Shown one piece after another: positions 1,574 to 45,311 of a DNA stretch of 64,000 nucleotides. Every line of letters starts with the position of its first letter. Position 1 is the first letter of the stretch. Source of the stretch: Myxococcota bacterium (lineage in GTDB: Bacteria; Myxococcota_A; UBA9160; UBA4427); NCBI GenBank assembly GCA_965250285.1, contig OZ252299.1, positions 2,112,001-2,176,000 of the forward strand, in the 5' to 3' direction. Below the pieces are notes generated by a model that was not told where the DNA came from, did no database searches, and was given only the letters and a program-made list of their open reading frames with translations. The position numbers and the translations under genes are program-made.

Positions 1574-1595
1574 GATCGCCCCAAGCGCCCAAGCT

Positions 1596-1994: not shown

Positions 1995-2142
1995 CGGGCT
2001 CCATCCTAGGGCAGCCCTTCGCGCACGGCGGCACTGCGCGCTTCCACCCGAGCTCATGCCGAGTCGGACTCTGGGTCGATCGCCCGTCGATCGCGCGGCC
2101 TTCGGGCGGGGCGCATCGCGGTGCGCGCGGCGAACGTTCGAT

Positions 2143-3006: not shown

Positions 3007-3054
3007 GAGCGCACCGCGCGTGCACGCCACCCACCATCGATGCGCGGCCCCCCA

Positions 3055-3726: not shown

Positions 3727-4217
3727 GGCACGCCTCCGGGTCTTGCTCGCATCGGCGCCCACGCGGCGCGGCGGGTCGGCTCGGGTGAACTCGCAGAGCC
3801 CCCCCCCGGCGTCGGCGATGGCTCGAACCGAAGCTACCCCGCCGCTGCAACCGGCGGACCTTGCGCCACGCGACCGAGGCCGACGCTCACCGTGCGACTC
3901 GACGCGCGGCTGTTTCGCAGCGATCGAATTCGTCGTCAGCGTGTCCCGGTCGGGCGGCGCACGGTCGCGTCGTCCCGATTCGAACGCAGTCTCACGCAGG
4001 GCACCGGGTCGACAACCCTACAAACGGCCGTTGCATGCGACGCGGGGGCCCCGCCTGATCGCGGCCCGCATCGCTGAGACGCTCGACGCGCTGACTCTCG
4101 ACGCCTTAGAGTCTGATTGTTTTCACCCACGCCGACTTTCTCTGATCCGATGCTCCATGCGATCTTCCGCCGCGCGCATTCGCAAAGAATTCGGTCCCCA
4201 CGTGGAAGGAAGCCGCC

Positions 4218-5261
4218 TTGTCCCAGCCCGCCGAGCACGGTCCCAGCCAGAACCGCACCGCCCCGCGCGCCAACAGCGGCGGCGACATGCGGACGGCCCT
4301 CGACGACTACTACGTGATGAAGGAGCTCGACGCCGATCAGCGGCCCGACGAGAAGGTCGAGGCGCAGCCGAATCTCGTCTCGCGCTACTACGACGTCGTC
4401 ACCCAGTTCTACGAGTACGCCTGGGGGCAGAGCTTCCACTTCTCGCCGCGCCAACCGGGCGAGAACCTCAAGACCTCACAGCGTCGCCAGGAGGAAGGGG
4501 TCGGCGAGCTCCTGCGCCTGAAGCCCGGCATGAAGGTCGCCGACATCGGCTGCGGCGTCGGTGGGCCGCTGGTGACGATCGGCAAGGCGACGGGAGCGAG
4601 CATCACGGGGCTCAACTTCAACGAGCACCAGATTGCACGCGGCCAGCAGATGGTGCGCAAGGCCGGGCTCGACGGCACGTGCGGCTTCCTGCTCGCGAAC
4701 TTCATGGACGTCCCGCTCGAAGACGGGCATTTCGACGCGATCTACTCGTTCGAAGCGATCTGCCACGCGCCCGATACCGGGCTGCTCTTCAAGGAGCTGT
4801 TCCGGCTGCTCAAGCCCGGCGGCGAGATCGCTGCGGTCGACTGGTGCCTGACCGAGCAGTTCGACGCGAGCAACCCCAAGCACGTCGACATTCGCGACCG
4901 CATCGAGTTCGCGAACGCGACGCCCGACCTGCTCACGCCCCAGCAGCAGCTCGACACGATGAAGGGCGCCGGGTTCGAGATCCTCTCCGCAACCGACCAG
5001 GCGGCGCAGAGCCATGCCGACACGCCCTGGTACATGGCGCTGCAGGGCCGCGACGTGTCGCTGGCCTCGCTGGCTCGTATCCCGGCCGGTCGAAGCTTCA
5101 CTTCGGGCGTGACATCGTTGCTCGAGAAGCTGCGCATCGCCCCGCCCGGCACGAGCGAGGCAGCGCAGCTGCTCAACGTCGCTGCCGACTCGCTCGTCGA
5201 AGGCGGCCAGCTCGGCCTCTTCACGCCGAGCTTCCTGGTCCATGCGCGAAAGCCCGAGTAG
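4218..5261 (+). CDS. Sterol C-24 methyltransferase (SMT/Erg6-like, SAM-dependent); TTG start, alternative ATG at 4287
   Basis: Region I FYEYAWGQSFHF, region II ADIGCGVGGP, region III YSFEAICHAP, region IV LKPGG, and SMT C-terminal LVEGGQLGLFTPSFLVHARKP. Confidence 0.9.
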   Translation: MSQPAEHGPSQNRTAPRANSGGDMRTALDDYYVMKELDADQRPDEKVEAQPNLVSRYYDVVTQFYEYAWGQSFHFSPRQPGENLKTSQRRQEEGVGELLRLKPGMKVADIGCGVGGPLVTIGKATGASITGLNFNEHQIARGQQMVRKAGLDGTCGFLLANFMDVPLEDGHFDAIYSFEAICHAPDTGLLFKELFRLLKPGGEIAAVDWCLTEQFDASNPKHVDIRDRIEFANATPDLLTPQQQLDTMKGAGFEILSATDQAAQSHADTPWYMALQGRDVSLASLARIPAGRSFTSGVTSLLEKLRIAPPGTSEAAQLLNVAADSLVEGGQLGLFTPSFLVHARKPE

Positions 5262-12354: not shown

Positions 12355-13958
12355 TGGCCCAGATCCACCAGCTCGACGCTGATCACATTGGGCAGCGCGG
12401 CGATGTTCTCGATCACCGAGCCCGGCGGCTGTCCATCGATGTTGACGAGCATGGCGGCCTCGTTGCGCTCGCGCACCAGCGCCAGCTGCATACGCGAGAT
12501 GTTGATGCCGGCTTCGCCGAGTGCCGTCCCGACGGTGCCCACGACGCCCGACTGGTCATGGTTGTGGACGAGCAGCGTCTGGCCCTCGGGAATCGCCTCG
12601 AGCATGAAGTCATCGAGCCGCACGATTCGGGGCTGGTCGCCGTGGAAGATCGCTCCCGAGATCAGGCGTTCGTTCGCACCCGACCCCGTCACGTTCGAGC
12701 CGCGAACGGTGACCGTGATCGCCGACGCGAAATCGCGCGGCTGAGTCGACTTGGTCTCGATGATCTTGATGCCGAGCTGCTGAGCGACGACGGGCGCGTT
12801 CACCATGTTGACGTTCTCGCGGGTCGGCGAGAGCAGACCGAAGAGCACGGCGATCGTGATCGGCGCGACGTCGAGGTCGGCAATCTCGCCGGCGTACTCG
12901 ACCTCGACCTGATCGATGTGGCTCTTGGCGAGCTGACCGTGGAAACGCCCCACCTTGCCGGCGAGCACCAGGTACGGCTCGACCTCCTCCATCAGCTCGG
13001 GCGAGACGCTCGGCACGTTCAGCGAGTTGCGGACGATGCCCTCGAGCAGGTAGTCGCGGATCTGCTCGGCCACGGCGACCGCCACGTTCACCTGCGCCTG
13101 CTCGGTCGACGCGCCGAGATGCGGCGTACAGATCACGTTCGGATGCGCGACGAGCGGATGGTCGTCGGGCGGAGGCTCTTCGACGAAGACGTCGAGGCCT
13201 GCGCCGCCGACCTTGCCGCTGTCGAGGGCCTCGAGCAGCGCCTCCTCGTCGACGATGCCGCCTCGGGCCGCGTTGATGACGAACACGCCGTCCTTGCACT
13301 TCGCGAAGGCCGCCTTGTTCAGGAGACCGGTCGTGCCCTTGGTCTTGGGCACGTGGACCGTGATGACGTCGGCGCGCTCGAGCAGCTCGTCGAACGACAC
13401 GAGTTCGGCACCGAGCTTCGCAGCGGCCTCGGGCGTGATGAACGGGTCGTGCACGATCACCTTCATGCCCAGCCCGGCCCCGCGAAGGCAGACGATCCGC
13501 CCGATGTTGCCCGCCCCGACGACGCCGAGCACACGGTTGTAGAGCTCCATCCCCTGGAACTTCTTCTTCTCCCACTTGCGTGCCTTCATCGAGGCGGTCG
13601 CCTGGGGAATGTGACGCGCGAGCGAGACCATGAGCGCGATCGCGTGCTCGGCCGTCGTGATGTTGTTGCCCTCGGGCGTGTTCACGACGACGACGCCGTG
13701 GTCGGTGGCGGCGGGCACATCGATGTTGTCGACACCGATGCCGGCGCGGCCGACGACCTTGAGCTTCTCGGCGCGGGCCAGAACCTCGGCCGTCACCTTG
13801 GTCGCGCTGCGGATGATCAGCCCTTCGGCGTCCCCGATCAGCTCGAGCAGCTCTTCGGGCGAGGTGCCCGGCTTGTTCACGACCTCGATCCCGGCCGTCT
13901 GTTCGAGAAGCTCGACGCCCTGGTCGGCGAGCGAATCCGTTACGAGCACCTTGGGCAA
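12351..13958 (-). CDS. serA: D-3-phosphoglycerate dehydrogenase (long form with ASB and ACT domains)
   Basis: GRAGIGVDNID, TTAEHA, GAGNIG, INAARGGIVDE, TPHLGAST; AGGAG RBS before TTG. Confidence 0.95.
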
Positions 13959-14419
13959 CGGAAGATCTCCTGTCTGTCGGGGCGGGCCCAACGGCCGCGC
14001 TGCCCGGCGTGCGCTCTCGCGCTGGGTGTCACGCGTCGGTCCCACCGGCTCGCACGGGCCGGCGGCGCCGGGGCGGCCATGGAATGCGACGCATCGATCG
14101 CTACAACTCGCTCCAGCCCATGCGGCCGCGGCAGCCGCACTCCGGGAGCCGGTGTGTCGGATGATGGCCGAGACGGCCCGGTCACGCGGGGAGCCCCCCA
14201 CGACGCGACCTTTCCCGACCTGTTCCGTAGATCGCTCGCAGTGGATCCGCCCTAACCCCTTGATGGCCAAGGAGAATCGCACGAGCGCTGGAAGGGTGCC
14301 CCAGCCCCACCGCAGTGTCAACGCGACGCGCTGCAACACGGCGTGACGGCGGTCGCCGCACGCCCGAAGCGTGTATGGTCCGCTGCGAAGACGAACTCCG
14401 CGCGCCGAGAGAGCCCACC

Positions 14420-15718
14420 GTGTCCTCAGCTCCCACCCGCCACCCCGTGCAGCCGCGACCGGCGGTCGACGCCAGCGTCCGCGTGCCCGGTTCGAAATCG
14501 CTGACGAATCGAGCGCTTCTGATCGCGGGCCTCGCAGAGGGCGAGACGCGGCTCACCGGCGCGCTGTCGAGCGACGACACCGTGGTCATGCGCCAGGCCC
14601 TCGAGGCGCTGGGCGCTCGGGTCGACGATGCGCGCGATCCCTGGGTCGTCGTCGGCACGGCCGGCCACTTCGAGGCGCCCGGAGCCCGGCTCTACATTCG
14701 GAACTCGGGCACCTCGGCGCGCTTTCTGGCGGCGGCCGCGTCGCTCGCCGCCGGACCCGTGGTCGTCGACGGCAACGATCGCATGCGCGAGCGCCCCATC
14801 GTGCACCTCGCCGAGGGACTGCGCAGCCTCGGCGTCGATGTCACGATCGAAGGCCACGACGGCTGTCCGCCGATCCGCGTGGCGGGCGGTGGCCTGCCCG
14901 GCGGACCGGGCGAGATCGACGCGAGTCAATCGAGCCAGTACGTCTCGGCGCTGCTGCTCGCGGCGCCGTATGCAGACAAGGACGTCGAGCTCACGCTGAC
15001 CGGTGGCGCCGTCGTCTCGAAGCCGTACATCGACGTGACCCTGGAGTGTATGCGCGACTTCGGTGCCGAGGCCGACTGGACGAGTGATACAGGATTGCGT
15101 GTGCGCGCCGGCGCGACCTATCGCGGTCGCGACTACGCGGTCGAAGCCGACGCGAGCTCGGCGGCGTACCCGTTCTGTGCAGCCGCGATCGCCGGCGGGC
15201 GCGTCGCGGTCGAAGGCGTTCGACTCGATTCGCTGCAGAGCGACTTCGAGATTCTCGGCCTGCTCGAGCGCATGGGCTGCACCGTGAGCCGCACGGGCGA
15301 CACCGTCGAGGTGCGACGCCCGGTCGATACGCCGCTGCGCGCGCTCGGCACCGTCGACATGAACGCGTTCCCCGACGCCGTGCTCGCCTACGCGGTGGTG
15401 TGCCTGTTCGCCGATGGGCCCACGACCATCGAAGACATCTACAACCTGCGGATCAAGGAGACCGATCGCCTGGCCGCCCTCGAGAACGAGCTGCGCAAGC
15501 TCGGCGCCGAGGCCGAGACGGGCCGCGATTGGCTTCGCATCACGCCGCCCGCCGACTCATCGATGCTGCGAGGGGCCGAGATCGAGACGTACGACGACCA
15601 CCGCATGGCGATGGCCTTCTCGCTCGCGGGGCTGCGGGTGCCCGGTGTCGTGATCCTCGACCCCGGGTGCGTGAGCAAGACCTGGCCCGGCTACTTCGAC
15701 GTGTTCGAGAGCCTGTAG
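14420..15718 (+). CDS. aroA: 3-phosphoshikimate 1-carboxyvinyltransferase (EPSP synthase)
   Basis: PGSKSLTNRAL, NSGTSARF, SSQYVSA, LRIKETDR, DDHRMAM. Confidence 0.97.
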   Translation: MSSAPTRHPVQPRPAVDASVRVPGSKSLTNRALLIAGLAEGETRLTGALSSDDTVVMRQALEALGARVDDARDPWVVVGTAGHFEAPGARLYIRNSGTSARFLAAAASLAAGPVVVDGNDRMRERPIVHLAEGLRSLGVDVTIEGHDGCPPIRVAGGGLPGGPGEIDASQSSQYVSALLLAAPYADKDVELTLTGGAVVSKPYIDVTLECMRDFGAEADWTSDTGLRVRAGATYRGRDYAVEADASSAAYPFCAAAIAGGRVAVEGVRLDSLQSDFEILGLLERMGCTVSRTGDTVEVRRPVDTPLRALGTVDMNAFPDAVLAYAVVCLFADGPTTIEDIYNLRIKETDRLAALENELRKLGAEAETGRDWLRITPPADSSMLRGAEIETYDDHRMAMAFSLAGLRVPGVVILDPGCVSKTWPGYFDVFESL

Positions 15719-31172: not shown

Positions 31173-32672
31173 ATGCTCGAAGAGTTCGACATCGCCGAGT
31201 TGCAAGTCGGCATCGAACGGGGCGAGCTCTCCTCCGCCTCTCTGTGCGAGACGTTCCTCGACCGGATCGACCGCATCGATCGCGCCGGCCCCTCGCTGTG
31301 TTCGGTCATGGAGGTGAACCCGGACGCGGTGCCGATCGCCGAGCGGCTCGATCGCGAACGCGCCGAGTCGGGCGCCCGTAGCCCGCTGCACGGCGTCCCA
31401 GTCCTGCTCAAGGACAGCCTCGATACCGCAGACGACATGATGACCACCGCCGGCTCGTTGGCCCTCGTGGGCAACATCGCGGCCCGCGACGCTTTCGTCG
31501 CCGAGCGGCTGCGCGCGGCCGGCGCCGTGATCCTCGGCAAGACCAACATGAGTGAGTGGGGCTATATGCGCTCGACGCGAGCCTGCAGCGGGTGGAGCAG
31601 TCGAGGCGGGCAGGTCCGCAACCCGCACGGACTCGATCGCAGCCCCTCGGGCTCGAGCTCCGGTTCGGCCGTGGCCGTCGCGGCCGGGCTGTGTACCGTC
31701 GCGATCGGCGCGGAGGTCGATGGCTCGATCGTTCGACCGGCGTCGATCAATGGCGTCGTGGGATTGAAGCCCACCGTCGGGCTCGTGAGTCGATCGGGGA
31801 TGATCGGTGTCGCTGCGACACAGGACACGGCCGGGCCGATCGGCCGGTCGGTGCGCGACGTCGCCTGCGTGCTGAACGCGATCGCGGGCCTCGACCCCCG
31901 TGATGCCGCCACTCATGCAGCACCCACCCGGCCAACCGACTATCGCGGTGCGCTGCGCGTCGATGCACTGCACGGTGCGCGGATCGGGGTCGCGCGCGAC
32001 CTGATGGGGACGCACTCGGGCGTCGACGCCGTCATCGACGATGCGATCCGAGTGCTCGCCGATCTCGGTGCAGAGATCGTCGACCCCGCCCTCGGGTCTG
32101 CGGTGCCGCTCTTCGGTGAGGCCGAGCTCGAGCTCTGCCTGTACGAAATGAAGGCCGGGCTGAACCGGTATCTGTCAGAGCACCCGCTCAGCCCGGTACG
32201 CTCCCTCGACGCGCTGATCGACTTCAATCGGTCGCACGCCGAGCGGGTCATGCCCTTCTTCCAGCAGGAGCTGCTCGAGCGGGCCGTTTCCAAGGGCGGG
32301 CTCGACGAACCGGCCTACCTCGATGCAAAGCGGGAATGTCATCGCCTGGCGCGCACCGACGGCATCGACCGCGTGCTGCGCGACCACCGCCTCGACGCCA
32401 TCGTGGCGCCCACCGACGGCATGCCGGCCTGGAAGATCGACCCGCTCTGCGGCGACCGCATCGAAGGGGGCTGCTCTTCGCCCGCGGCCATGGCCGGCTA
32501 TCCGCACATCAGCGTCCCGGCCGGTCAGTTCCACGGGCTCCCCGTCGCGCTCTCCTTCTTTGCCGACGCCTACCAGGAGGCGAAGCTCCTGGGCTACGCC
32601 CACGCGTTCGAACAAGCGACGCGCGCGCGCCGATCGCCCACCTTCCGTCCCTCGATCGATTCGCCCGCGTGA
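31173..32672 (+). CDS. Amidase signature family protein
   Basis: LHGVPVLLKD, GKTN, SGSSSGS, GSIVRPAS. Confidence 0.95.
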   Translation: MLEEFDIAELQVGIERGELSSASLCETFLDRIDRIDRAGPSLCSVMEVNPDAVPIAERLDRERAESGARSPLHGVPVLLKDSLDTADDMMTTAGSLALVGNIAARDAFVAERLRAAGAVILGKTNMSEWGYMRSTRACSGWSSRGGQVRNPHGLDRSPSGSSSGSAVAVAAGLCTVAIGAEVDGSIVRPASINGVVGLKPTVGLVSRSGMIGVAATQDTAGPIGRSVRDVACVLNAIAGLDPRDAATHAAPTRPTDYRGALRVDALHGARIGVARDLMGTHSGVDAVIDDAIRVLADLGAEIVDPALGSAVPLFGEAELELCLYEMKAGLNRYLSEHPLSPVRSLDALIDFNRSHAERVMPFFQQELLERAVSKGGLDEPAYLDAKRECHRLARTDGIDRVLRDHRLDAIVAPTDGMPAWKIDPLCGDRIEGGCSSPAAMAGYPHISVPAGQFHGLPVALSFFADAYQEAKLLGYAHAFEQATRARRSPTFRPSIDSPA

Positions 32673-32784
32673 ACGCCCGTTCCGGACAACTTGGCGCCGT
32701 GCCGCTCGAGTCGAGCACCACGCAGGCGGCCGATGTAGCCTCGGCCGTGCGCGAGCCCGTGCCACAGTCACGCTGGAGGAGCCG

Positions 32785-33627
32785 ATGCAGACCCGCCCCC
32801 TCGATGGTGCCTTCGGCGTCGAAGTCACCGATCTCGATCTCGCCCAGTCGATCGACGCGCCGACGGCCGATGCGCTGCGCGCCGCGCTGCTCGACCACCG
32901 GCTGCTCGTCTTTCGCGATCAGAAGCTCTCGCCCGAACACCTGCGCGATCTCGGCCAGCTCTTTGGCCGCCTAGACGTGCACCCCTTCATCGAGGCCATG
33001 GAAGGCGTGCCCGAGGTCATTCCGATCGTGAAGGAGGCGGACGAGAAGCAGAACTTCGGCGGCGCGTGGCATTCCGAGGTCAGCTTCTACGAAGCGCCCG
33101 CCATGGGCACCCTCCTCTACGCGGTCGAGACGCCCGACGAAGGCGGCGACACGCTGCTCGCCGACGCGGTGCTCGCCTACGACGCGCTGCCCGACGAAGT
33201 GAAGGCCGAGATCGACGGGCTCCAGGCCGAGCACAGTGCCGAGCACGTGTACGGCCCGGGCGGGGCCTACGAGAAGCGCGCGACGGGCGCAGCTTCGGGG
33301 ACGAAGACCCAGAACATGGAGGCTGCGACCGGGCGCACCGCGCATCCGGTCGTGCGCACCCACCCCGAGACGGGCGAGAAGATTCTCTACGTGAACCTCG
33401 CGTTCACCGTCGGGCTGGTCGGTCGCAGCGATGATGAGGCGCGGCCGCTCCTCAACAAGCTGATCCAGCACGTCGTGAACGACGCCTTCGTCACCCGGCT
33501 CAAGTGGGCACCGGGCACGCTCGCGCTCTGGGACAATCGCTCGACCCAGCACTTCGCGCTGAACGATTACCGCGGCGACCGAAGAGAGATGTGGCGGGTG
33601 GTCGTCGAGGGCGATCGGCCGATCTGA
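32785..33627 (+). CDS. TauD/TfdA-family 2-oxoglutarate/Fe(II) dioxygenase
   Basis: WHSE (HxE), GGDT, HPVVRTHPETG, WDNRSTQH, final R; GGAGGA RBS. Confidence 0.92.
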   Translation: MQTRPLDGAFGVEVTDLDLAQSIDAPTADALRAALLDHRLLVFRDQKLSPEHLRDLGQLFGRLDVHPFIEAMEGVPEVIPIVKEADEKQNFGGAWHSEVSFYEAPAMGTLLYAVETPDEGGDTLLADAVLAYDALPDEVKAEIDGLQAEHSAEHVYGPGGAYEKRATGAASGTKTQNMEAATGRTAHPVVRTHPETGEKILYVNLAFTVGLVGRSDDEARPLLNKLIQHVVNDAFVTRLKWAPGTLALWDNRSTQHFALNDYRGDRREMWRVVVEGDRPI

Positions 33628-36037: not shown

Positions 36038-36535
36038 TCACCCGCCCTGGGTCACGCCGACCTTCGAAACCATGAACTGCACCGCTGCGCGCACCTCGTC
36101 GTCGCTCAGGTCGGCGTTGCCGCCGCGGGCGGGCATCTCGCCCACCTTGCCGTAGAAGCCCTGGGTCGCGTGCTCGACGAGCACGTCGAGGCCCTGAGCC
36201 ACGCGCGGCGACCAGAGCGCTTCGTTGCCGATCAGCGGCGCGCCGCCGAGACCGGTCGAGTGACAGTCGATGCACGTACCCGTCCACGTGACGCGGCCCG
36301 CTTCGAGAAGCGGATCGTCGACCGGCGTCTCCCAGAGCCCGGGATCGGGCAGCGCCGGCTTCGCCTTGGCGGCGGGCTGACTCAACACCGTGAAGCCGTC
36401 GCTCGGCGGCGGCTCTTCGGCGCCGGAGCAACCGAGCAAGACGACGCAGAGTGCCGCGGCCGCGACCAGGCGCGCGCGCAGACCCTCTGCGCGCGCGCCT
36501 CCCTTGGCCTGCTTCCTCCTCGCGGTGGGTCTCAC
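36038..36535 (-). CDS. Cytochrome c5-like monoheme lipoprotein
   Basis: LLG-C lipobox; CIDCH; GAP..G...W..R; MPARGG..LSDDEV..AV. Confidence 0.88.
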   Translation of the reverse strand: MRPTARRKQAKGGARAEGLRARLVAAAALCVVLLGCSGAEEPPPSDGFTVLSQPAAKAKPALPDPGLWETPVDDPLLEAGRVTWTGTCIDCHSTGLGGAPLIGNEALWSPRVAQGLDVLVEHATQGFYGKVGEMPARGGNADLSDDEVRAAVQFMVSKVGVTQGG

Positions 36536-37119
36536 GAGCCGACGGGGATCCGGATCACCACGCCGCCCATCACGTCGCCCAGGGCGAAGTCGTCGCGGGG
36601 GGTGTCCTTGTGCTCGTTGTGGCAGCTGACGCACGCGGGGGCGACAGCCGTGTCGGCGTAGACCGCGGTGAAGTACTTCTGCCCGCCGAGGGTTTCCTCG
36701 GCGTAGAAGTTCTGACCCTTGTTGTCCGCGACGTACACGAGCCCCGCCTTCTCGACGTCTGTGCGCGGTGCGTTCTGCTTGTTGATGGGCCAGATCGAAA
36801 GCAGCGAATACGAGAAACCGGGCTCCTTCTCGGCCACCATCTCGGCGCCCATCCGGAACATCTGGGCGGGCAACGGCAGCGCAGGCTCCTCCTTCCAGTG
36901 CTCACTCGCCTTGATCACACCCTGCTCCTTCGCGAGCCGGTTGACGACGTTGCGCGTGTAGACCGTGCGGTCCGATTCCATCACAGCGTGCAAGGCGTCG
37001 GCCATCTGTTGCGGCTCGACGCCTCCTCCGCCGCTGCTCGCGTTGGACGGTTGACACCCGACACCCGTCAGGCCGATGCACAACGCCAGGCCCAACGCAC
37101 CGATCGTGCCGAACTTCAT
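36532..37119 (-). CDS. DUF3365/Tll0287-like heme c-binding lipoprotein
   Basis: GVG-C lipobox; LPLPAQMFR; PINKQNAP; CVSCH; GDVMGGVVI. Confidence 0.85.
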   Translation of the reverse strand: MKFGTIGALGLALCIGLTGVGCQPSNASSGGGGVEPQQMADALHAVMESDRTVYTRNVVNRLAKEQGVIKASEHWKEEPALPLPAQMFRMGAEMVAEKEPGFSYSLLSIWPINKQNAPRTDVEKAGLVYVADNKGQNFYAEETLGGQKYFTAVYADTAVAPACVSCHNEHKDTPRDDFALGDVMGGVVIRIPVGS

Positions 37120-38516
37120 CACTTGCTCTCCTCTTGCCTTCCTTTGGTTTGGTTTTCCTGCCAGGGCGGGGGCTTCCCTTCGAGCTCCCAACGGAGCACG
37201 GTCGCGAAATGGATGCTGTCGACGGTGACCGAAGGCGGACCGTCGTAGTTCGTCGCGGCGAGTTCGGGGTCGGCCAGCGCATCGAGGGCGAAGCCGAGCC
37301 CGTGACAGTCGAGGCAGACCGGGCGAATCATCTTGTCGCCGGGCCGCAGCGTGTCGTTCTGGTTGTGGGCGACGCGGATGCCGCCTTCGTGATCGATGCG
37401 CGGCAGGTGGCAGGTCGCGCACGAGACCCCCGTGCCGGGCGCGCCGGCGCCGCTCTGCTCGGCCACCCAGAGTGCACCGTGCGAAGACGCCTCCCAGGCA
37501 CGACTGTGTTCGTCGGCGTGGCATTCGAGGCACGCCTCGGCCGCGGCCGTGCGCGTGTCGTAGCCATGGGCGCCGTGACACGACTGACAGCCGAGCTCGG
37601 CCTCGGCCGCATCGGCATGCATCGGGAGCCGTGCCTGCCCCGGCGTCATGGCCGGCAGGTCGGCGGCGAGCCGCATTCCGTGGCGGCCCGCGCCAAAACC
37701 GTCGTGCTCGAACTGGTGGCACTCGGCGCAGGCTGCGGGCGCGGGTTGATCCGCCCAGGCCGCGCCGGCCGGCGCATGACAGGCGTTGCAGTTGACGCCG
37801 GCCTCGGCGTGCGAGGTGCCCAGCCAGTCGGCGACGGCGTCGTCGCGCCCATCGAGATCGGGCGGGGCGTCTGCGTCGACGGCGAGCAGCGGCCGGGGGC
37901 CGGCATGGCCCTGCGCACGCGCCCACGCGAGCAGCCCGCGTTCCGGCGTTCTCGGATCGACCGCGAGCCTTGGCTCGTCGCGGTGGTCGACCAGGAAGTC
38001 TTCGTAGAGCGCGCGGTTGTCATGAAAGTTGTGACATCCCGAGGCCGCGCAGCCGTCGAAGGGCAGGCCCGCGTGAGTCGGCCGCTCTTCACCGACGTCT
38101 TCGTGGCAGCGGTAGCAGTAGTCACCCGGCAGGCTGAGTCCCATCGTCGAGGTCAACTCGGGGCGATGTTCCTGGTGACACGTCACACACCAACGCGCGT
38201 CGAGGGATTCGACCCGGTCGGCGTTGCGCGGATCGGTGAACTTGCGCTGCGGATGCGAATCGTCGACGAGCTTCAGCTCAGCGCCGTGACATTCGACGCA
38301 GGCGTCCTGCATCGTGGTCAGATCACCGAACGAATCGGTGTGGCACGCGTCGCAGGCGAGCTCGATCTGGTAGTGCCCATCGGTCGTCTCTCCGGGCAGG
38401 AAGACCGTGCGTTCGATGGGAGCGCCTTCGAGAATCTGCGGCTCGAACATCAGCATTGCGAGTGCCCCGGCGGCGACGGCCGATCCGATGGACCAGATCC
38501 AAAGCTTCCCCGCCAC
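37119..38516 (-). CDS. Multiheme cytochrome c, 11 heme-binding motifs
   Basis: 10 CxxCH plus one CxxxxCH (CAASGCH); N-terminal hydrophobic anchor/signal. Confidence 0.92.
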   Translation of the reverse strand: MAGKLWIWSIGSAVAAGALAMLMFEPQILEGAPIERTVFLPGETTDGHYQIELACDACHTDSFGDLTTMQDACVECHGAELKLVDDSHPQRKFTDPRNADRVESLDARWCVTCHQEHRPELTSTMGLSLPGDYCYRCHEDVGEERPTHAGLPFDGCAASGCHNFHDNRALYEDFLVDHRDEPRLAVDPRTPERGLLAWARAQGHAGPRPLLAVDADAPPDLDGRDDAVADWLGTSHAEAGVNCNACHAPAGAAWADQPAPAACAECHQFEHDGFGAGRHGMRLAADLPAMTPGQARLPMHADAAEAELGCQSCHGAHGYDTRTAAAEACLECHADEHSRAWEASSHGALWVAEQSGAGAPGTGVSCATCHLPRIDHEGGIRVAHNQNDTLRPGDKMIRPVCLDCHGLGFALDALADPELAATNYDGPPSVTVDSIHFATVLRWELEGKPPPWQENQTKGRQEESK

Positions 38517-38531
38517 GCGGCTTCGCTCTCC

Positions 38532-40499
38532 TCAGTAGAAGTAGACCGCCAGGACGTGCGCGGCGGTGAGCACCGGCAGCGGCCAGACGACGAACACGTG
38601 CGCCGCGGTCCATCCACGACGCAATACCCCTCCCCACTCCGGCGACATCCGGCGCTCGAGCCAGGTCACCAGACCGGCGAGCGCGCCGAGCAGCGCCGCC
38701 GCGAGGAAGCAGAGCATCAGCACCTGATTGAGATTCGACCCGAGTCGGAACCCCGTGTGCGCAACGAGCAGGCCCAGCGTGGCGACGCCCATCGTCGCGT
38801 GGGCCACACGCCAACCCGATACCGAGCCGATCTTGAACCGACCGATGCGCTTGCGAATCGAGAAGATCAGGCTCGCGAGGACGACCCCCACGAGCGTGAA
38901 GCCGCTGATCTGCTTCGCGGTGGCGTCGCGCCAGATCCAGTCGATCCCCGGCCCCGTCTCGAGCGACGTCGACATCGGAATCGGATCGAACGCGCCGAAC
39001 AGGAGCACCCCGACGAGCCCGGCGACGCCCGCCAGACCGAGACCCCAGCCGGCCCCCCGGCGTCGGCTGTCGGCGCGCTCGCCCGCCAACGCTTCGAGCA
39101 GCGGCTCGCAGCTCCCGCAGACCGAAGCCGCGCCCGTCTCTTCACTGAGCGCCACAGAAGAGCACGCACCGCGCGCCTGGGCTGCGCGCAGCGCGCCGCA
39201 GGTGACGCCCGTGCAGGTACAGACGACGGCCGCATCGGGCCACTGGGCAATGGGCTTCTCGGCCCCGTCGGCCCAGAGCCGGCCGGTGCGGTCGAATCGG
39301 CGGCGTTGCCAGGCGCGGACCCGGGCCCCCTCCGATACGGCCTCTTGAAGCCGCGGAAACTCGGAGCCGGCGCCGACGGCGATCGCGCCGACGATGCGGC
39401 CTTCGCGCAAGACGATCCGGCGATACTCGTCGTCGCGCACCCAGCTGAGGGCCGAGACGCCCACGCCCTCGGCGAGCGAATCGCCCACGGCGGCCACGTC
39501 GATCTCGTCGATCTTGAGACGAGCCGAAGAGACGGCGCCTTCGAACGGGCGGGTCTCGCCGTCCATCCGCGCGATCCAAGACTCGACCATCTCGTAGCAG
39601 GGCGCGACCAGGCCATAGGTCTGGTCGCGGTGGCGCACGCACTCGCCGATGGCATCGATGTGCGGATCCGACGTCGCGAGGTGATCGTCGACCAGGATGC
39701 CGCCGCGATCGTCGCACGCGACGCCGGCGGCGCGCGCCAGGTCGTCCCGCGGCCGGATCCCCGCGGCGAGCACGATGAGATCGGCCGGCAGTCGCCGACC
39801 GTCGCTCAGCGTGACGGTCTTCTCGTCCTCGCGGCGCTCGATGTCGTCGACGCGTGCAAGCAGATGCAGCCCGATCCCGAAGGACCGGATCGCGCGTTCG
39901 AGCACGGCCGCCCCTTCTGCGTCGAGCTGGCGCGGCAAGAGCCGAGGCCCCATCTCGATGACGTCGACGGCGCAGCCGCGGGCGATCAGCCCGCGCGCGA
40001 GTTCGAGCCCGAGCAGCCCGCCGCCAGCGACCACGACGCGCGCGCCCACCTCGGCGCGCCGCGCGATCTCCTCGGCATCCTCGCGCGTGCGGTACGCGAC
40101 CACGCCCGAGTGCTCGATTCCGGGGATCGGCGGCCGAAATGGCGCGCCGCCGGTGGCGATCACGAGGCGGTCGTATTCGACGATCGAGCCCGTCTCGGTG
40201 CGCACCACGCGCGCCTCACGGTCGACCTCGACCACGCGATCCTTGACCCGCAGTCGGATCCCGTGATCGGCGTACCAGGCGGCGTCGCGCAGGGCGAGCT
40301 CGTCGCCCTCCTCGCCCTTGACCACGGCACCCAGGTGGATGCGGTCGTAGGGCGCGTGCAGCTCTTCGGAGAGCAGCGTCACCTGCATCCCCGAAGCCAG
40401 GCCGGTCGAGACCAGCCGTTCGGCGATGCGATGTGCCGTCATGCCGCCGCCGACGATCGCCAGGCGCACGGGATCGCTCCCGGTCAACGCCGCCGCCAC
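38532..40499 (-). CDS. NirB-like NAD(P)H:FAD oxidoreductase fused to BFD-like [2Fe-2S] domain and C-terminal His-containing membrane domain
   Basis: IVGGGM, PYDR..L, ATG, GGGLLGLE, AIGEC, GLVAP; CTC...CGSC; TMs with four His; no siroheme domain. Confidence 0.88.
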   Translation of the reverse strand: MAAALTGSDPVRLAIVGGGMTAHRIAERLVSTGLASGMQVTLLSEELHAPYDRIHLGAVVKGEEGDELALRDAAWYADHGIRLRVKDRVVEVDREARVVRTETGSIVEYDRLVIATGGAPFRPPIPGIEHSGVVAYRTREDAEEIARRAEVGARVVVAGGGLLGLELARGLIARGCAVDVIEMGPRLLPRQLDAEGAAVLERAIRSFGIGLHLLARVDDIERREDEKTVTLSDGRRLPADLIVLAAGIRPRDDLARAAGVACDDRGGILVDDHLATSDPHIDAIGECVRHRDQTYGLVAPCYEMVESWIARMDGETRPFEGAVSSARLKIDEIDVAAVGDSLAEGVGVSALSWVRDDEYRRIVLREGRIVGAIAVGAGSEFPRLQEAVSEGARVRAWQRRRFDRTGRLWADGAEKPIAQWPDAAVVCTCTGVTCGALRAAQARGACSSVALSEETGAASVCGSCEPLLEALAGERADSRRRGAGWGLGLAGVAGLVGVLLFGAFDPIPMSTSLETGPGIDWIWRDATAKQISGFTLVGVVLASLIFSIRKRIGRFKIGSVSGWRVAHATMGVATLGLLVAHTGFRLGSNLNQVLMLCFLAAALLGALAGLVTWLERRMSPEWGGVLRRGWTAAHVFVVWPLPVLTAAHVLAVYFY

Positions 40500-40542
40500 G
40501 CCGGCCTCCGCATCGAGGTCTGATGCGCGCGCCGCACCCGAC

Positions 40543-40950
40543 TCAGGCCGCCGCGTCGATCATCACGGTCGAGAGAATCCCGTACGTCTTGACCCAGGCT
40601 TCGCGGGCTTCGTCGGTGAAGTCGTCGCCGAGCGCCGTGGCGAGCGTGTCGATCAGCACCTCGCCGACGACCGGATAGTGATCGGGCAGCGCCCCGTAGT
40701 CGGCGTGGCGCTTGCCGCTGGCCTCGACCGCGGGGACGATCTTCTCGATCTCGTCCATGTTGTTCACGGCGACGCCGATCATCGTCATCAGCTTCTGCCC
40801 CTGCGCCTTCATGTCTTCGGGAAAGAGCGGGCGCACGCCGGGTGCCTTCGCGAAGAGCTTCCCGTAGAAGAGGGTGGCGGCGGCATCGGGATCGGCGCCC
40901 GCGATCTCCCAGGTCTTGCGTACGACTTCGATCTCTCGGTCCGTGAACAC
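40543..40950 (-). CDS. Single-domain globin (Vgb/flavohemoglobin-like)
   Basis: LFYGKLF (TyrB10), PLFP (PheCD1), AQGQKL (GlnE7), GKRHADYG (HisF8), HYPVVG; AAGGAG RBS. Confidence 0.93.
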   Translation of the reverse strand: MFTDREIEVVRKTWEIAGADPDAAATLFYGKLFAKAPGVRPLFPEDMKAQGQKLMTMIGVAVNNMDEIEKIVPAVEASGKRHADYGALPDHYPVVGEVLIDTLATALGDDFTDEAREAWVKTYGILSTVMIDAAA

Positions 40951-41403
40951 GTTCGACTCCTTTGGCTCGGTTTCGAGAGCCCCAAACGAGCGAAGGGCGC
41001 TCCGGTCGATCCGCCCCGTCGCGTACGACGGTTCGGCTCGATCGAGGCGCCCTTGCCTCCGGGTCTCACCCATGCGCCCGACACACCGTGGTGGACGCCG
41101 ACATTCGATGCGCCGAAGCATTTCAAGAAGCGGGCCAATGCGGAGGGCGCGTTCAGCGCTGCCCGGGACTTCGAGCGCGGAGTCACTGCCCAGCACCGGG
41201 GCAGGTGCCCGCTGCACTGCGGGGCATGCGCGCGTCGGTCGTGCAGGTCATCGCCCATTGCGACACGCAGCCGCGCAGGCTCGCTCGAATCAGAACGCGT
41301 CTCGCGCGTTCGATGTGCCCACCGATTCATCGGCCCGACACGTGAGCGGCGCAGAGCGGCGCCTCGACCGGCGAGGATCGCTCGATTGAGCCATGCTCGG
41401 CGC

Positions 41404-42408
41404 ATGCCGAACGACGCGAACTACAAGAGCTACGGCGAGCAGTCGCTGCACTACTTCGCCCGCCCCCACGAAACGACGCCGACCACCCCGGTCGGCGGTG
41501 CGGCGGCGTGGCGCGGGGCAGAGCTCGGGCGGCGTGAGGCATGGAAGACGCAGCTCGACGAGAAGCAGGTCGATGAGATCGAAGCGGCCCTCGATCATGT
41601 CGAGGCGACGGGCCGAGCCACGGGCGAGCTCGAAGCGGCCGACTTTCCTCTGCCGACGCTTGCATCCGAAGTGGCCGCGTGGCGCAACGAGATCGCGACG
41701 GGTCGGGGCTTCCACGTCGTCCGGGGCGTGCCGGTGGAGCGGTGGTCTACCGAGCGGGCCGAGCGCTTCTTCTGGTGCATCGGCCTGCACATGGGCACAC
41801 CCGGCGCGCAGAATGCGCGGGGGGAGCTGCTCGGACACGTGACGGATACCGGTGCGCGCGAGACCGACCGCTTCGTCCGGCTGTACGAGACGCGGGCCGA
41901 CATCGCGTTTCACTGCGACGCCGCCGACGTGGTCGGCCTGCTCTGCCTCTCGGCCGGACGTGCGGGCGGGGCAAGCCGCATCGCCAGCTCGGTGTCGGTC
42001 CACGACGAGCTGCTGGCGCGCCGTCCCGACCTGGTGCCCCGTCTCTACGAGCCATTCGCGCTCGACGTGCGCAGCGAGGGCGATCGCGCAGCCCTTCGGC
42101 ACATCCCGGTGCCCCCCTGCCGCTTTGCCGATGGCCGGCTCCGCACCTTCTACCACAGCGACTACTTTCGCTCGGCGACACGGCACGACGACGTGCCCGA
42201 GCTCGACGAGGCCGAGTGCGCGTTGCTCGACCTGTTCGAGTCGATCGCGGGCGAGCCCGAATTCCGCCTCGACATGCAGCTCGAGCCCGGCGACATCCAG
42301 TGGCTGTCGAATCACACCGTGGTGCACGCGCGAACCGCATACGAAGACGGGGGGAACGACGCCGAGCGCCGCCACCTCCTCCGCCTCTGGCTGTCGATCG
42401 AGGACTGA
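41404..42408 (+). CDS. TauD/TfdA-family dioxygenase
   Basis: AAWRG, GRGF..VRG.P, FHCD..DVVGLLC, NHTVVHAR, RHLLRLWL. Confidence 0.88.
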   Translation: MPNDANYKSYGEQSLHYFARPHETTPTTPVGGAAAWRGAELGRREAWKTQLDEKQVDEIEAALDHVEATGRATGELEAADFPLPTLASEVAAWRNEIATGRGFHVVRGVPVERWSTERAERFFWCIGLHMGTPGAQNARGELLGHVTDTGARETDRFVRLYETRADIAFHCDAADVVGLLCLSAGRAGGASRIASSVSVHDELLARRPDLVPRLYEPFALDVRSEGDRAALRHIPVPPCRFADGRLRTFYHSDYFRSATRHDDVPELDEAECALLDLFESIAGEPEFRLDMQLEPGDIQWLSNHTVVHARTAYEDGGNDAERRHLLRLWLSIED

Positions 42409-42442
42409 GCGCACCCCGCCCTCGCATCGACAAGGAGCGCCG

Positions 42443-43798
42443 ATGTCCCGCCTCGAGTTTCCCGCCGGCTTTCGCTGGGGCTGCGCGACCGCGTCGTACC
42501 AGATCGAGGGCGCCTGGAAGGCGGACGACAAGGGCGAGTCGATCTGGGATCGATTCGCGCACACACCCGGCCGTGTCGCTCAGGGCCACACGGGCGATGT
42601 CGCCTGCGACTCGTATCACCGCTTCGACGAAGACATCGCGCTGCTTCGCCAGATGAACTGCACCAGCTATCGCTTCTCGGTGGCCTGGCCCCGGATCCAG
42701 CCCACCGGGCGCGGGCCGGTCAACGCGAAGGGGCTCGACTACTACCGGCGCGTCTGCGATGCACTGCTCGCAGCCGGCATCCGCCCGTTCCCGACCCTCT
42801 ACCACTGGGATCTGCCCCAGGCGCTCGAAGACGACGGCGGCTGGCCGAACCGCGACCTCGCGGGTCGGTTCGCCGACTACGCCGACATCGTCGCGCGCGG
42901 ACTCGGCGACCTCGTCGACGACTGGATGATCTTCAACGAGCCGTTCGTCTTCACCGCCATGGGCTATCTGCTCGGCATCCACGCACCGGGTCGTGCCTCG
43001 ATGGACGACTTCCTGCGCGCGACCCACACGGTCAATCTCGCACAGGGCCAGGCGTGCCAGGCAATGCGCGCGACCGCGTCGGATGCGCGCATCGGCAGCG
43101 CGTTCAGCATGTCGGCCTGCGAGCCCGCCCGCGACGAAGCCGAAGACGCCGAGGCCGCCGAACGCTGGCACCGCTTCACGAACCTCTGGTTCCTCGATCC
43201 GGCGCAGTCGGGGCAGTACCCCGCAGCGTTCGTCGATGGCGTCCCGGAGGCCGCGCTCGGCATGCGGCCGGGCGACGCCGAGACGGTCCGGGCCGACCTC
43301 GACTTCATCGGGATCAACCTCTACACGCGCACGCTCGTGCGCCACGCCCCCGAAGACACGCGCGGCCTCGCCGCCCTCCCCGTTGGCGGGATGGGCGGAG
43401 ACGACGGGCCGAAGACCGACTTCGGGTGGGAGGTCTGGCCGAACGCCCTGCGCGACGTCGTGCTCCGGATCCACCACGACTACGATGCGCCCGAGATCGA
43501 GATCACCGAGAACGGCTGCGCCTACGCCGACCGGCCGGGCGAGGACGGCCGCATCGAGGATCGTCGACGCATCGACTTCTACGCCGGCTACCTCGCCGCG
43601 CTGCACGAAGCCATCGACGCGGGCGCGCGCGTCACGGGCTACCACGCCTGGAGCCTGCTCGACAACTTCGAGTGGAGCGAAGGCTACGCCCAGCGCTTCG
43701 GTCTCACGTGGGTCGACTTCGAATCGGGCGATCGAACGCTGAAGGATTCGGGCCACTGGTATGCCCGCGTCGCCGACGAGAACGGGCTGGATCACTGA
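42443..43798 (+). CDS. Glycoside hydrolase family 1 beta-glucosidase
   Basis: ATASYQIEG, YRFSVAWPRI, TLYHWDLP, NEP and ITENG catalytic glutamates, DNFEW. Confidence 0.96.
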   Translation: MSRLEFPAGFRWGCATASYQIEGAWKADDKGESIWDRFAHTPGRVAQGHTGDVACDSYHRFDEDIALLRQMNCTSYRFSVAWPRIQPTGRGPVNAKGLDYYRRVCDALLAAGIRPFPTLYHWDLPQALEDDGGWPNRDLAGRFADYADIVARGLGDLVDDWMIFNEPFVFTAMGYLLGIHAPGRASMDDFLRATHTVNLAQGQACQAMRATASDARIGSAFSMSACEPARDEAEDAEAAERWHRFTNLWFLDPAQSGQYPAAFVDGVPEAALGMRPGDAETVRADLDFIGINLYTRTLVRHAPEDTRGLAALPVGGMGGDDGPKTDFGWEVWPNALRDVVLRIHHDYDAPEIEITENGCAYADRPGEDGRIEDRRRIDFYAGYLAALHEAIDAGARVTGYHAWSLLDNFEWSEGYAQRFGLTWVDFESGDRTLKDSGHWYARVADENGLDH

Positions 43799-43799
43799 C

Positions 43800-45311
43800 A
43801 TGAGCGACCGCCCCGCATCCCGGTCGCCCTGGCGGCGCTCGAAGACCGCCGCAAGCGTCGTGGGCGCGCCGGTGCTCGCCGCCTTGATGATCGTGTCGAT
43901 CGCGTTCGCGCTGCGCTGTACGCAGGTGCAGCTCTGGCCATCGGCGCCGGACGCACCCCACCTCGCCGAGAAGCAGGCCTACCTCGACGCTCTGCCCTCG
44001 GCCCGCGAAGACGCCCCGAATGTGGTGATCGTCTTTTTCGACGACCTCGGCTGGGGGGACCTCTCGATCCAGGGCAATCGCCTGATCGAAACGCCCCGCA
44101 TCGACCGCGCGGCCGCCGAAGGCCTGCGGATGACCGACTTCTATGCCGCCTCGCCGGTCTGCACGCCTTCGCGCGCGGCGCTGCTGACCGGCCGCCACCC
44201 CCCCCGCACCCGCACCGATCGACACGTCTTCTTTCCGGAGGGCTCGGCCATGGGCATCGCGCGCCGCATGGCCGGCGCAGCAAACGAGCTCCCCGAAGAC
44301 GAGATCACCCTGGCCGAGGTGCTGCAACGGGCCGGCTACGCGACGGCGCTCGTCGGCAAGTGGCACCTCGGGGATCGAACGGGCTTCCGTCCGAACGACT
44401 TCGGCTTCGATCGCTGGCTCGGCGTGATGTACAGCAACGACATGTGGCCGCTGCACCTCTACAGCGACGGTGAGATCATCGAACGCGACGAGCGCGATGG
44501 CGGCCTGTTCGCCTCCGAGCGAGATGAAAAGAAGCCGCTCGGCCCGGGCGGCATCGATCAATCGACCCTGACGGCCCGCTACACCGAAGAGGCCATCGCT
44601 TTCGTCGAGGCGCATCGCGACGAGCCCTTCTTCCTGCTCCTCGCCCATACGTTCCCGCACGTGCCGCACTACCCGTCCGCCGAATTCGCCGGCACGTCTC
44701 GCGGGGGCCGCTATGGCGACGTGGTCGAAGACCTCGACCGCAGCACGGGCGCGCTGCTCGACGCGATCGATGAGCTCGGGCTATCGGAGAACACGCTCGT
44801 GGTCATCACGAGCGACAATGGCGCCGACTACGGCGGCAGCCCGGGCGGCCTCCGGGGCCGCAAGGGCGACATTCTCGAGGGCGGGCAGCGCGTGCCGATG
44901 ATCGTGCGTTGGCCGGGACACGTCGCGGCCGGTCGCGTCAGTCCGGCCCCGGCCATGCACATCGACGTGTTCCCGACGCTCCTCGAGCTCGCCGGCCTGC
45001 CGATGCCGACCGATCGCGAGATCGACGGGCAGAGTCTCGGGGCGCTGATCGGCGGCGAAACGCCCCCGGAGCGCGACCTCTTCTTCTTTCCGACGCTGCA
45101 GAGCCTGCCCGGTGCGATCCGTCGCGGCCCGTTCAAGTGGCTGCATCGCACGGGCGACGTCGGTCGTGATCGCGGTCACCTGACCCGCGTCGATCTCGAT
45201 GCAGAGGCACACGAGCTGTCGGATCTCTACCCCGACCGGGCCGCTGCCCTCGCCGCCGCACTCGATGCAATGCGCGAGCAGATTTCTTCGAACCCGCGCG
45301 GCTTCCGCTGA
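43800..45311 (+). CDS. Formylglycine-dependent sulfatase with N-terminal signal/anchor
   Basis: DDLGWGD, CTPSRAALLTGR, GKWHLG, SDNG, GRKG..EGG.RVP. Confidence 0.95.
   Translation: MSDRPASRSPWRRSKTAASVVGAPVLAALMIVSIAFALRCTQVQLWPSAPDAPHLAEKQAYLDALPSAREDAPNVVIVFFDDLGWGDLSIQGNRLIETPRIDRAAAEGLRMTDFYAASPVCTPSRAALLTGRHPPRTRTDRHVFFPEGSAMGIARRMAGAANELPEDEITLAEVLQRAGYATALVGKWHLGDRTGFRPNDFGFDRWLGVMYSNDMWPLHLYSDGEIIERDERDGGLFASERDEKKPLGPGGIDQSTLTARYTEEAIAFVEAHRDEPFFLLLAHTFPHVPHYPSAEFAGTSRGGRYGDVVEDLDRSTGALLDAIDELGLSENTLVVITSDNGADYGGSPGGLRGRKGDILEGGQRVPMIVRWPGHVAAGRVSPAPAMHIDVFPTLLELAGLPMPTDREIDGQSLGALIGGETPPERDLFFFPTLQSLPGAIRRGPFKWLHRTGDVGRDRGHLTRVDLDAEAHELSDLYPDRAAALAAALDAMREQISSNPRGFR

Follow-up and report, generated by a model that had tools for sequence, protein, structure and literature searches.

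A five-gene operon predicted to export electrons from NADH to the periplasm through a di-haem membrane domain in a Myxococcota bacterium

A 64,000-nucleotide stretch of the genome of a Myxococcota bacterium (assembly GCA_965250285.1, contig OZ252299.1, positions 2,112,001 to 2,176,000; hereafter the window, with positions counted from its first letter) carries on its minus strand a five-gene operon that encodes a globin, a flavoprotein fused to a membrane domain, an 11-haem cytochrome c, a DUF3365 protein and a c5-type cytochrome. We consider it probable that these products make up one NADH-fed chain that exports electrons from the cytoplasm to the periplasm and reduces, probably, a nitrogen oxide. 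In our best reading the electrons cross the membrane by way of two haems b held in a membrane domain that has not been described before, and the combination of parts is new. Each electron-transfer step is inferred from domain identity, invariant ligands, gene fusion and synteny. The first-pass annotation of this DNA had proposed a continuous chain from NAD(P)H to the periplasm, and the match to one half of NirB, the invariant BFD cysteines, histidines and haem motifs, and the synteny across phyla all support it. It also knew of no characterized complex with such an architecture; our full-text literature search, which left most subscription journals and preprint supplements outside its scope, likewise found no published description of the operon.

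If this reading is correct, the operon provides a direct electron route from NADH to the periplasm that bypasses quinones, its building blocks being a reductase of NirB type and a di-haem membrane domain not described before. It could then be a missing player in the nitrogen-oxide handling of Planctomycetota, Alpha- and Gammaproteobacteria and Myxococcota-like bacteria, and the stand-alone DUF3365/sCache_haem proteins, which form a large clade, could be assigned a function. The family of the membrane domain is large, with 1018 representatives, and is present in cultured isolates.

The five genes are a real, tightly packed operon within a 6.25-Mb single-contig genome. From the globin gene to the c5 gene, neighbors are separated by 43 bp and 15 bp and then overlap by 1 nt (TGATG) and 4 nt (GTGA); Shine-Dalgarno-like runs precede the starts of the first four genes. 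Plus-strand genes border the operon at either side, so the block is self-contained. The coordinates, spacing and domains that the first reading had assigned to five co-oriented genes were all borne out by open reading frames (ORFs) and Pfam matches, and because the arrangement recurs at 76 loci of other genomes it is far beyond chance.

The fusion protein and its membrane domain

The second gene (38532–40499, minus strand; GTG start with GGAGG upstream) encodes the 655-residue flavoprotein–membrane fusion. Its N-terminal 470 residues correspond to the FAD/NAD(P)H and BFD half of NirB, covering positions 1–465 of the 794 in model TIGR02374 (E 2e-118); the whole-protein score of 396.7 bits is below the cut-off of 578.35, so that the fusion is not itself a NirB by this model. 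The FAD/NAD(P)H reductase domain occupies residues 11–415 (39255–40469, minus strand; Pyr_redox_2, E 4e-57; Rubredoxin_C, E 7e-10), where pLDDT of the AlphaFold2 model is mostly above 90, and the top structural matches of the fusion model were putidaredoxin reductase, BphA4, and ferredoxin and rubredoxin reductases, with Z of 35–38. A BFD-like [2Fe-2S] domain follows at residues 425–471 (39087–39227, minus strand; PF04324, 29.1 bits against a cut-off of 26), and its four cysteines (427, 429, 461 and 464) are invariant in 52 homologues. FAD, NAD(P)H and the BFD [2Fe-2S] cluster are thus shared with the N-terminal half of NirB and with NorW-type reductases, but the sirohaem/4Fe-4S NIR_SIR half is lacking: neither NIR_SIR nor NIR_SIR_ferr was among the 12 Pfam families found, and residues 484–655 are transmembrane helices instead. 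A separate, true NirB paralogue of 41% identity is encoded elsewhere in the genome. Glu182, which is nearly invariant and follows the second GxGxxG, points to NADH and not NADPH as the donor by a general rule for Rossmann folds.

The membrane domain (residues 484–655; 38535–39050, minus strand) is predicted to hold two haems b. In the AlphaFold2 model (mean pLDDT of the fusion 88.8), it consists of five helices, residues 485–503, 526–551, 560–582, 590–617 and 620–654. His567 and His581 lie on helix 3, and His634 and His648 on helix 5, forming two H-x13-H pairs with partners 14 residues apart, the spacing that is found in di-haem cytochromes b and NOX-type domains. All four histidines and a motif HTGxRxGxNxN that follows His581 are invariant in the 52 NirB-fused homologues. 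In 25 sequences without the NirB part, mostly fused to GPP34, the four histidines are invariant as well, and so are, within the motif, H, T, G, R, G and the first of its N residues; the last N is kept in 24 of them. The Arg/Lys-rich loops, read by the positive-inside rule, place the flavoprotein and loops 2–3 and 4–5 in the cytoplasm and one histidine pair near each face of the membrane. His567/His634 would accordingly be predicted to bind a haem b at the cytoplasmic side and His581/His648 one at the periplasmic side.

Proteins related to this domain were sought in several ways. With residues 476–655 as query, a word-based search returned 13 proteins of 544–681 residues, the window's own included, all of them the same fusion. 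An exhaustive profile search returned 1018 representative proteins (50% clustering) at E ≤ 1e-3, of which 398 reached E ≤ 1e-30; fusions of 640–690 residues made up the greater part of the top matches. Sub-threshold matches, which serve as leads only, were to DUF4405 (PF14358; E 0.092 and 13.7 bits for the window protein against a cut-off of 26.7, and 4 of the 13 members, best E 0.0017) and to Ni_hydr_CYTB (PF01292; 3 of the 13 members). Ferric_reduct (PF01794) gave no match at E ≤ 10 with the domain alone and none in the 13 members at E ≤ 1, and in a sequence search at E ≤ 10 the domain matched no solved chain. When the whole fusion model was used in fold searches, the matches were to the reductase domain only, and a weak lead in a protein atlas (0.82 to a cluster with 34% Fer2_BFD) is probably the domain's own kind.

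Stand-alone membrane proteins of about 270 residues that have the same histidine pattern and a long cytoplasmic insert are encoded by relatives of this genome (regions L088:628–1650, minus strand; L090:283–1731 and L090:1484–2401, plus strand). One stand-alone four-histidine homologue has a weak match to Ni_hydr_CYTB (E 2.7e-4, 21.2 bits against 30.1), again a lead only, and the stand-alone gene of L090, a relative of this genome, lies directly upstream of another multihaem cytochrome c gene.

Two kinds of known systems resemble this arrangement. In NOX and ferric reductases, as in Fre-MsrQ-MsrP, a cytoplasmic NAD(P)H-oxidizing flavin reduces two stacked bis-His haems b, which pass electrons to an acceptor on the outside. 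The window protein would work in a like manner: its histidine pairs, the predicted haem b ligands, sit on helices 3 and 5, which are not neighbors, at a spacing of 13. It differs in having five helices and not six, in an N-terminal dehydrogenase of another fold with an iron–sulfur step, and in a multihaem cytochrome as the putative acceptor. In the inner-membrane b/c cytochromes of the Geobacter CbcL type, which are quinol oxidases without a flavoprotein, a membrane module with two haems b is coupled to a multihaem cytochrome c of the periplasm. Likened by description, the window system would have this b/c module in common with them, but the flavoprotein is found only in the window system.

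The periplasmic haem proteins

The third gene (37119–38516, minus strand) encodes a 465-residue cytochrome c, anchored in the membrane by an N-terminal helix (residues 5–24) and matched by the Pfam families Cytochrom_c3_2 and C7 (c3/c7-type multihaem motifs). The earlier count of 11 haems stands, made up of 10 CxxCH motifs and one CX4CH (C156-x4-C161-H162), and all 11 are invariant in 47 orthologues. Eleven further histidines are invariant, five in the N-terminal half, which carries five haems, and six in the C-terminal half, which carries six; they are enough for bis-His ligation of all 11 c haems. The cytochrome contains no CxxCK motif.

The C-terminal half of the cytochrome resembles the superfamily of hydroxylamine oxidoreductase (HAO), octahaem nitrite reductase and NrfA. 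The structural model is of moderate quality (pLDDT 73.4), and Foldseek returned nothing at E ≤ 1e-3, with HAO 1fgj as the best match (E 0.02). The top ten rows of a structural search with VIA against representatives were all multihaem cytochromes, followed by rows with Z of about 3. They were headed by IhOCC 4qo5 (Z 8.9, rmsd 4.4, 202 residues aligned), HAO 6m0p (Z 8.6), Kuenenia HAO 4n4j (Z 8.5, rmsd 15.0), the reducing HAO-like 6h5l (Z 8.0) and octahaem nitrite reductase 8rv0 (Z 6.9), and OcwA and NrfA ranked after these. The aligned part is residues 205–426, with about 180–214 residues at 20–25% identity and rmsd of 3.8–4.4 except for the 15.0 of 4n4j. Sequence profiles agree with these structural matches (E about 1e-10 for NrfA and octahaem nitrite reductase, 1.5e-6 for IhOCC) and are in accord with a real relationship. 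A run of motifs, CxxCHxxH..CxxCH..W..S.HG..W..CATCH..CLxCH, is common to the cytochrome, IhOCC and octahaem nitrite reductase. Residue alignment pairs haems 8–11 of the window protein with CTACH, CGQCH and CATCH of IhOCC and with the last two haems of octahaem nitrite reductase; by motif order, haem 7 (Cys263) would occupy the place of the HAO-type catalytic haem.

The window cytochrome differs from HAO, IhOCC, octahaem nitrite reductase and NrfA in its 11 haems, its extra N-terminal haems and its membrane anchor, and its NCBIfam matches to the HAO/nitrite reductase superfamily are far under the cut-offs. It scores low also with the models for NapC/NrfH/CymA (TIGR03153, 21.3 bits against 134.2) and DmsE/MtrA (TIGR03508, 40 bits against 192.2). 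Published systems from Idiomarina (PMC9230427), Tenderiales (the uet cluster, 10.1101/2022.05.06.490989) and Methylobacter (PMC13322032) were set aside as other cytochromes.

The fourth gene (36532–37119, minus strand) encodes a Tll0287-like single-haem c protein of 195 residues that belongs to DUF3365 (sCache_haem; PF11845, E 4e-21, 76.3 bits against a cut-off of 24.1). No other part of the operon is as well conserved, with a mean identity of 54% among 39 orthologues and 48–78% identity to the window protein. Invariant in these orthologues are C163, C166, H167, H170, R51, R89, R190 and four tyrosines, as are Glu, Gln and Asn residues, and Met87 is nearly so. Tll0287 has Cys/His axial ligation, but the clade of the window protein is without the distal cysteine: the mature protein has no cysteine outside CxxCH, and 33 of the 39 orthologues hold only the two CxxCH cysteines. 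The profile of the protein matched no solved chain at E ≤ 1. In a 2026 preprint, the Tll0287/DUF3365 family has been reclassified as haem-binding Cache domains, of which members fused to signaling modules behave as NO sensors (PMC12889525). For a stand-alone sCache_haem protein of Pseudomonas, ligation was reported to be Cys/His or His/OH⁻, the potential +123 mV and a role in redox likely (later version, bioRxiv 10.64898/2026.02.01.703092); by a search for terms, the excerpted text of that preprint contains no mention of an operon, gene neighborhood, multihaem cytochromes or NirB.

The last gene (36038–36535, minus strand) encodes a c5-type, class I monohaem cytochrome c of 165 residues with a single CxxCH motif, CIDCH (PF13442, Cytochrome_CBB3, E 7e-12, 45.9 bits against a cut-off of 27). 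Its closest solved structures are cytochrome c-555 (4j20, E 2e-22) and then cytochromes c5 (8smr_L, E 1.5e-10; 1cc5, E 1.7e-8). Both this protein and the DUF3365 protein had been annotated as monohaem lipoproteins. That holds for the former, which has a good lipobox (LLGC); the case for the latter is weaker, as its lipobox is atypical (GVGC) and its orthologues mostly carry signal peptides of the ordinary kind, and we regard it as exported and possibly a lipoprotein. Tethering of the DUF3365 protein to the outer membrane was dropped from consideration, because most orthologues are not lipoproteins.

Distribution of the gene set and the globin

We surveyed 76 loci, with one genome per species, by calling ORFs and searching them with the five window proteins on the same strand within 6 kb. 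The first-pass annotation had called for a synteny survey, and the gene set proved to be conserved across phyla. The 11-haem cytochrome is adjacent to the membrane domain in 72 of the 76 loci (it is missed at three contig ends and in L063), 67 loci have DUF3365, and the trio of membrane domain, cytochrome and DUF3365 is found in 67/76 loci from several phyla. The c5 gene occurs in 17/76 loci, every one of them NirB-type (17/47). No further neighbor is conserved, the next commonest families being found in at most 8 of the 76 loci. The hosts, as named in the records, include Planctomycetota, Alpha- and Gammaproteobacteria, a delta-proteobacterial metagenome-assembled genome (MAG), which is the closest (52–61% identity), and a Flavobacteriaceae MAG. 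Cultured carriers, again by their names in the records, include Roseiconus nitratireducens, Thalassococcus halodurans, Epibacterium ulvae, Tritonibacter litoralis and Acuticoccus yangtzensis. A strong match was found in only 3 of 40 relatives of this genome, and the distribution is therefore patchy.

The N-terminal part of the fusion is NirB-type in 47 loci and different in the other 29. In 25 of these 29 (within L053–L083; for example, L062:7377–8555 and L073:7275–8453), a GPP34 domain (PF05719, Golgi phosphoprotein 3) replaces the flavoprotein; these loci still carry the 11-haem cytochrome followed by DUF3365, and never the globin. Of the remaining four, L079 and L080 have the membrane domain alone, and L065 and L076 look broken, the latter having a second, GPP34-fused copy as well. 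In these two MAG chromosomes (L065:8091–10438, L076:7839–9571) the module appears degraded, with a truncated membrane-domain gene and a cytochrome split into several ORFs. We calculated a quick tree by maximum likelihood from 47 cytochromes, namely that of the window and those of 46 of the 72 loci with an adjacent cytochrome, picked by ORF length. Fourteen of the 15 rows labeled as GPP34-type (among which L079 and L080 are without a GPP34 match) form one clade with a support of 97, nested within the NirB-type rows as sister to the Rhodobacteraceae rows. This nesting implies that the swap of the flavoprotein for GPP34 is derived.

The first gene of the operon (40543–40950, minus strand; GTG start with AAGGAG 6 nt upstream) encodes a cytoplasmic globin of 135 residues (PF00042, E 5e-18) without a signal peptide. 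Model NF009805 of the flavohaemoglobin Hmp matches it over positions 1–136 only, with 78.6 bits against a cut-off of 432; by its sequence, the globin is a single-domain member of the flavohaemoglobin lineage. The closest solved structures are 3s1i/3ubc (E 1e-28), 3wfw and Vitreoscilla haemoglobin 1vhb (E 5e-20). Aligned to the solved relatives, Tyr29, Gln50 and His82 fall at what we take to be positions B10, E7 and F8.

Of the 47 NirB-fused loci, 42 encode a globin on the same strand no more than 6 kb away, and none of the other 29 loci does; the five NirB-type loci without it are two contig ends, two Thalassococcus loci and L035. The leading position of the globin had been seen as a hint at function. 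It does lead the operon here, but this is particular to the lineage, as 39 of the 42 loci with a globin have its gene at the end, and it comes first only in L008, L014 and, likewise, the window. The contrast of 42/47 against 0/29 carries limited weight, since the losses of the flavoprotein and the globin coincide in about one event.

The arrangement recalls Bjgb-Flp of Bradyrhizobium, encoded in an operon (narK-bjgb-flp-nasC), which is linked to nitrate assimilation and has been proposed to detoxify NO, with a separate NAD(P)H flavoprotein serving Bjgb, a globin (PMC4724949). As far as the excerpted text of that paper allows the comparison, both systems place a single-domain flavohaemoglobin-type globin beside a gene for an NAD(P)H/FAD flavoprotein, here adjacent and 43 bp apart. 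Flp, which we liken by description, is soluble and cytoplasmic, but the window reductase is fused to a membrane domain and is followed by periplasmic haem proteins; and Bjgb-Flp is linked to nitrate assimilation, but the window operon lies outside its genome's own nitrate locus.

Control, substrate and alternative readings

A sigma-54-type −24/−12 promoter-like element, TGGCCCGCTTCTTGAA, is located at 41122–41137 on the minus strand, 187 nt upstream of the globin start, and agrees with 10 of 12 consensus positions. There are 356 such hits genome-wide on both strands, and 0.013 would be expected in the 470 nt searched. An almost identical element, TGGCCCGATTCTTGAA, is found at −140 in the closest relative, L008. 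Ahead of the first gene, sigma-54-like elements were found in 23 of 39 NirB-type loci, against 1.6 expected from these loci themselves, but 0 of 22 GPP34-type loci had one; genes for sigma-54 activators are within 8 kb at 4 loci. NtrC-like dyads upstream of the elements are weakly enriched (7 of 22 regions, about 2.7 expected). FNR/CRP-type boxes were not enriched, with one match in 40 upstream regions, which is background, and a scan for sigma-70 promoters and terminators was uninformative for the minus strand; hairpins of terminator type within the fusion gene are at chance level (2 found, 1.9 expected).

The genome has its own nitrate-assimilation cluster (C1:5886373–5901681), which contains an MFS transporter, a 978-residue NirB, a NasA-like molybdoenzyme and NrtABC-like genes, and sigma-54-like elements occur upstream of its nirB (TGGCACGCATGTTGAA) and nrtA. 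The promoters of the operon, nirB and nrtA share no longer motif. A TTGAA variant of the −12 part that is shared with nirB (4 in the genome) was not counted, as it was defined after the fact. Genes for NrtA/B-like, NasA-like or NIR_SIR proteins are located within 8 kb of the operon in 7/76 loci of at least four lineages, from Planctomycetota, Gamma- and Alphaproteobacteria and one Flavobacteriaceae MAG. Among the loci surveyed, physical linkage to nitrate genes is thus the minority case and sigma-54 control is common. The initial suggestion of a function related to NO, nitrite or O2 thus gained ground on the side of nitrogen oxides, through the sigma-54 promoters, these neighbors and the fold resembling HAO and octahaem nitrite reductase.

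In the mechanism that we propose, the reductase domain would oxidize NADH and pass electrons to its own BFD cluster, which would reduce the cytoplasm-side haem b (His567/His634), and from there the electron would move to the periplasm-side haem b (His581/His648). The membrane-anchored 11-haem cytochrome would accept it from the outer haem b and hand it on to DUF3365 and, in loci that have it, to c5. NO, nitrite or hydroxylamine, as the substrate, may react at the seventh haem of the cytochrome or at the cysteine-less DUF3365 haem; a nitrogen oxide is most likely, and peroxide or oxygen species are conceivable. In the cytoplasm, this reductase most likely has the globin as a second client, and the two would then act as a split flavohaemoglobin (NO dioxygenase) like Bjgb-Flp. 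A more specific proposal, which we put forward only tentatively, is that of a new quinone-independent NADH dehydrogenase complex, wired through two membrane haems into an HAO-like 11-haem periplasmic reductase with a cysteine-less haem-Cache subunit; it would turn over nitrite, hydroxylamine or NO outside the cytoplasmic membrane, its reductase would also keep an NO-dioxygenase globin reduced, and it would be under sigma-54 control and have spread horizontally through marine and soil bacteria.

Several findings weigh against export to a nitrogen oxide as set out above. No Pfam match of the membrane domain rises to its cut-off, and by sequence the domain matches no solved structure. In the 25 GPP34-fused relatives the haem chain is kept and the flavoprotein is lacking, and the core can therefore work without fused NADH input; the correlation between globin and flavoprotein rests, by the cytochrome tree, on about one evolutionary event. 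The capacity for bis-His ligation of every haem would fit a wire better than an enzyme, and structural Z of 8–9 is near the level that the search method flags as common. The operon lies 3.7 Mb from its genome's own nirB-nasA-nrtABC cluster, nitrate-related neighbors are present in only 7/76 loci, and four Rhodobacteraceae loci adjoin katG instead, with a LysR-type gene, which hints at an oxidative-stress context in that lineage.

The question then is whether another task could account for the same genes. The operon could encode a general NADH:cytochrome c reductase, a non-pumping overflow with no catalytic site of its own, that feeds a periplasmic c pool via c5 and DUF3365 for terminal oxidases, peroxidases or denitrification enzymes. 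Eleven invariant extra histidines that could render every c haem bis-His would agree with this, as would the likeness of the c5-type protein to the carriers c-555, ScyA and c5, and the +123 mV and the suggested electron-transfer role of the stand-alone sCache_haem protein (bioRxiv 10.64898/2026.02.01.703092). However, c5 is found in just 17/76 loci, the most conserved protein is DUF3365, whose many invariant polar residues look like a binding pocket, sigma-54 control and the nitrate-locus neighbors point to a specific task, and the cytochrome resembles a superfamily of enzymes by fold; we consider a general reductase unlikely. A flow of electrons inward, from a periplasmic donor through the cytochromes to the cytoplasmic FeS, FAD and globin, or a redox or NO sensor in place of a metabolic chain, is highly improbable. 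HAO-type enzymes can be oxidative and signaling-fused DUF3365 members act as NO sensors (PMC12889525), but Pfam identified no signaling output domain in the operon, and by general bioenergetics a flow from c haem to BFD/FAD against the membrane potential should be energetically unfavorable.

It is also conceivable, and in our judgment quite unlikely, that the membrane domain trades electrons with the quinone pool and the cytochrome as a Cbc-type module, the flavoprotein mainly serving cytoplasmic clients such as the globin. The weak family matches of the domain are to cytochrome b561/Ni_hydr_CYTB, members of which are often quinone-reactive. The GPP34-fused relatives, with their four histidines, cytochrome and DUF3365 but no flavoprotein, and the distant stand-alone four-histidine proteins, which also adjoin multihaem cytochrome genes, can be read in the same way. 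Against a link to quinones, the GPP34-type forms are derived, 14 of the 15 labeled rows being one clade nested in the NirB-fused forms; the [2Fe-2S] domain is fused a dozen residues ahead of helix 1, which is hard to explain unless the cluster serves the membrane haems; and no quinone site was identified in the domain. Export of electrons from NADH through the two haems b remains our preferred reading.

Some neighbors of the operon are mentioned here for their own sake. A catalase-peroxidase (PF00141, about 722 residues) and a LysR-type regulator are encoded just downstream of the operon in L021, L034, L036 and L048 (at about 12500–15700). Genes for Alginate_exp-family outer-membrane porins stand beside it in L012, L013, L024 and L032, which also have nitrate-assimilation genes; the gene order in L032 is NIR_SIR, a CysJ-like flavoprotein, porin, operon and MoaA. 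Upstream of the operon in L024, a Thiogranum MAG, a gene (333–4223, minus strand) for a protein of 1296 residues with nine CxxCH motifs and bacterial Ig and cadherin-like domains adjoins the gene for a PAS/sigma-54 activator. In the window itself, two TauD/TfdA-type dioxygenase-like genes are located near the operon on the plus strand, at 32323–33627 and 41400–42408, one of them divergent from its promoter region, and beta-glucosidase-like and sulfatase-like genes come next at 42400–45311; judged by translated sequence, none of these has an evident link to the operon.

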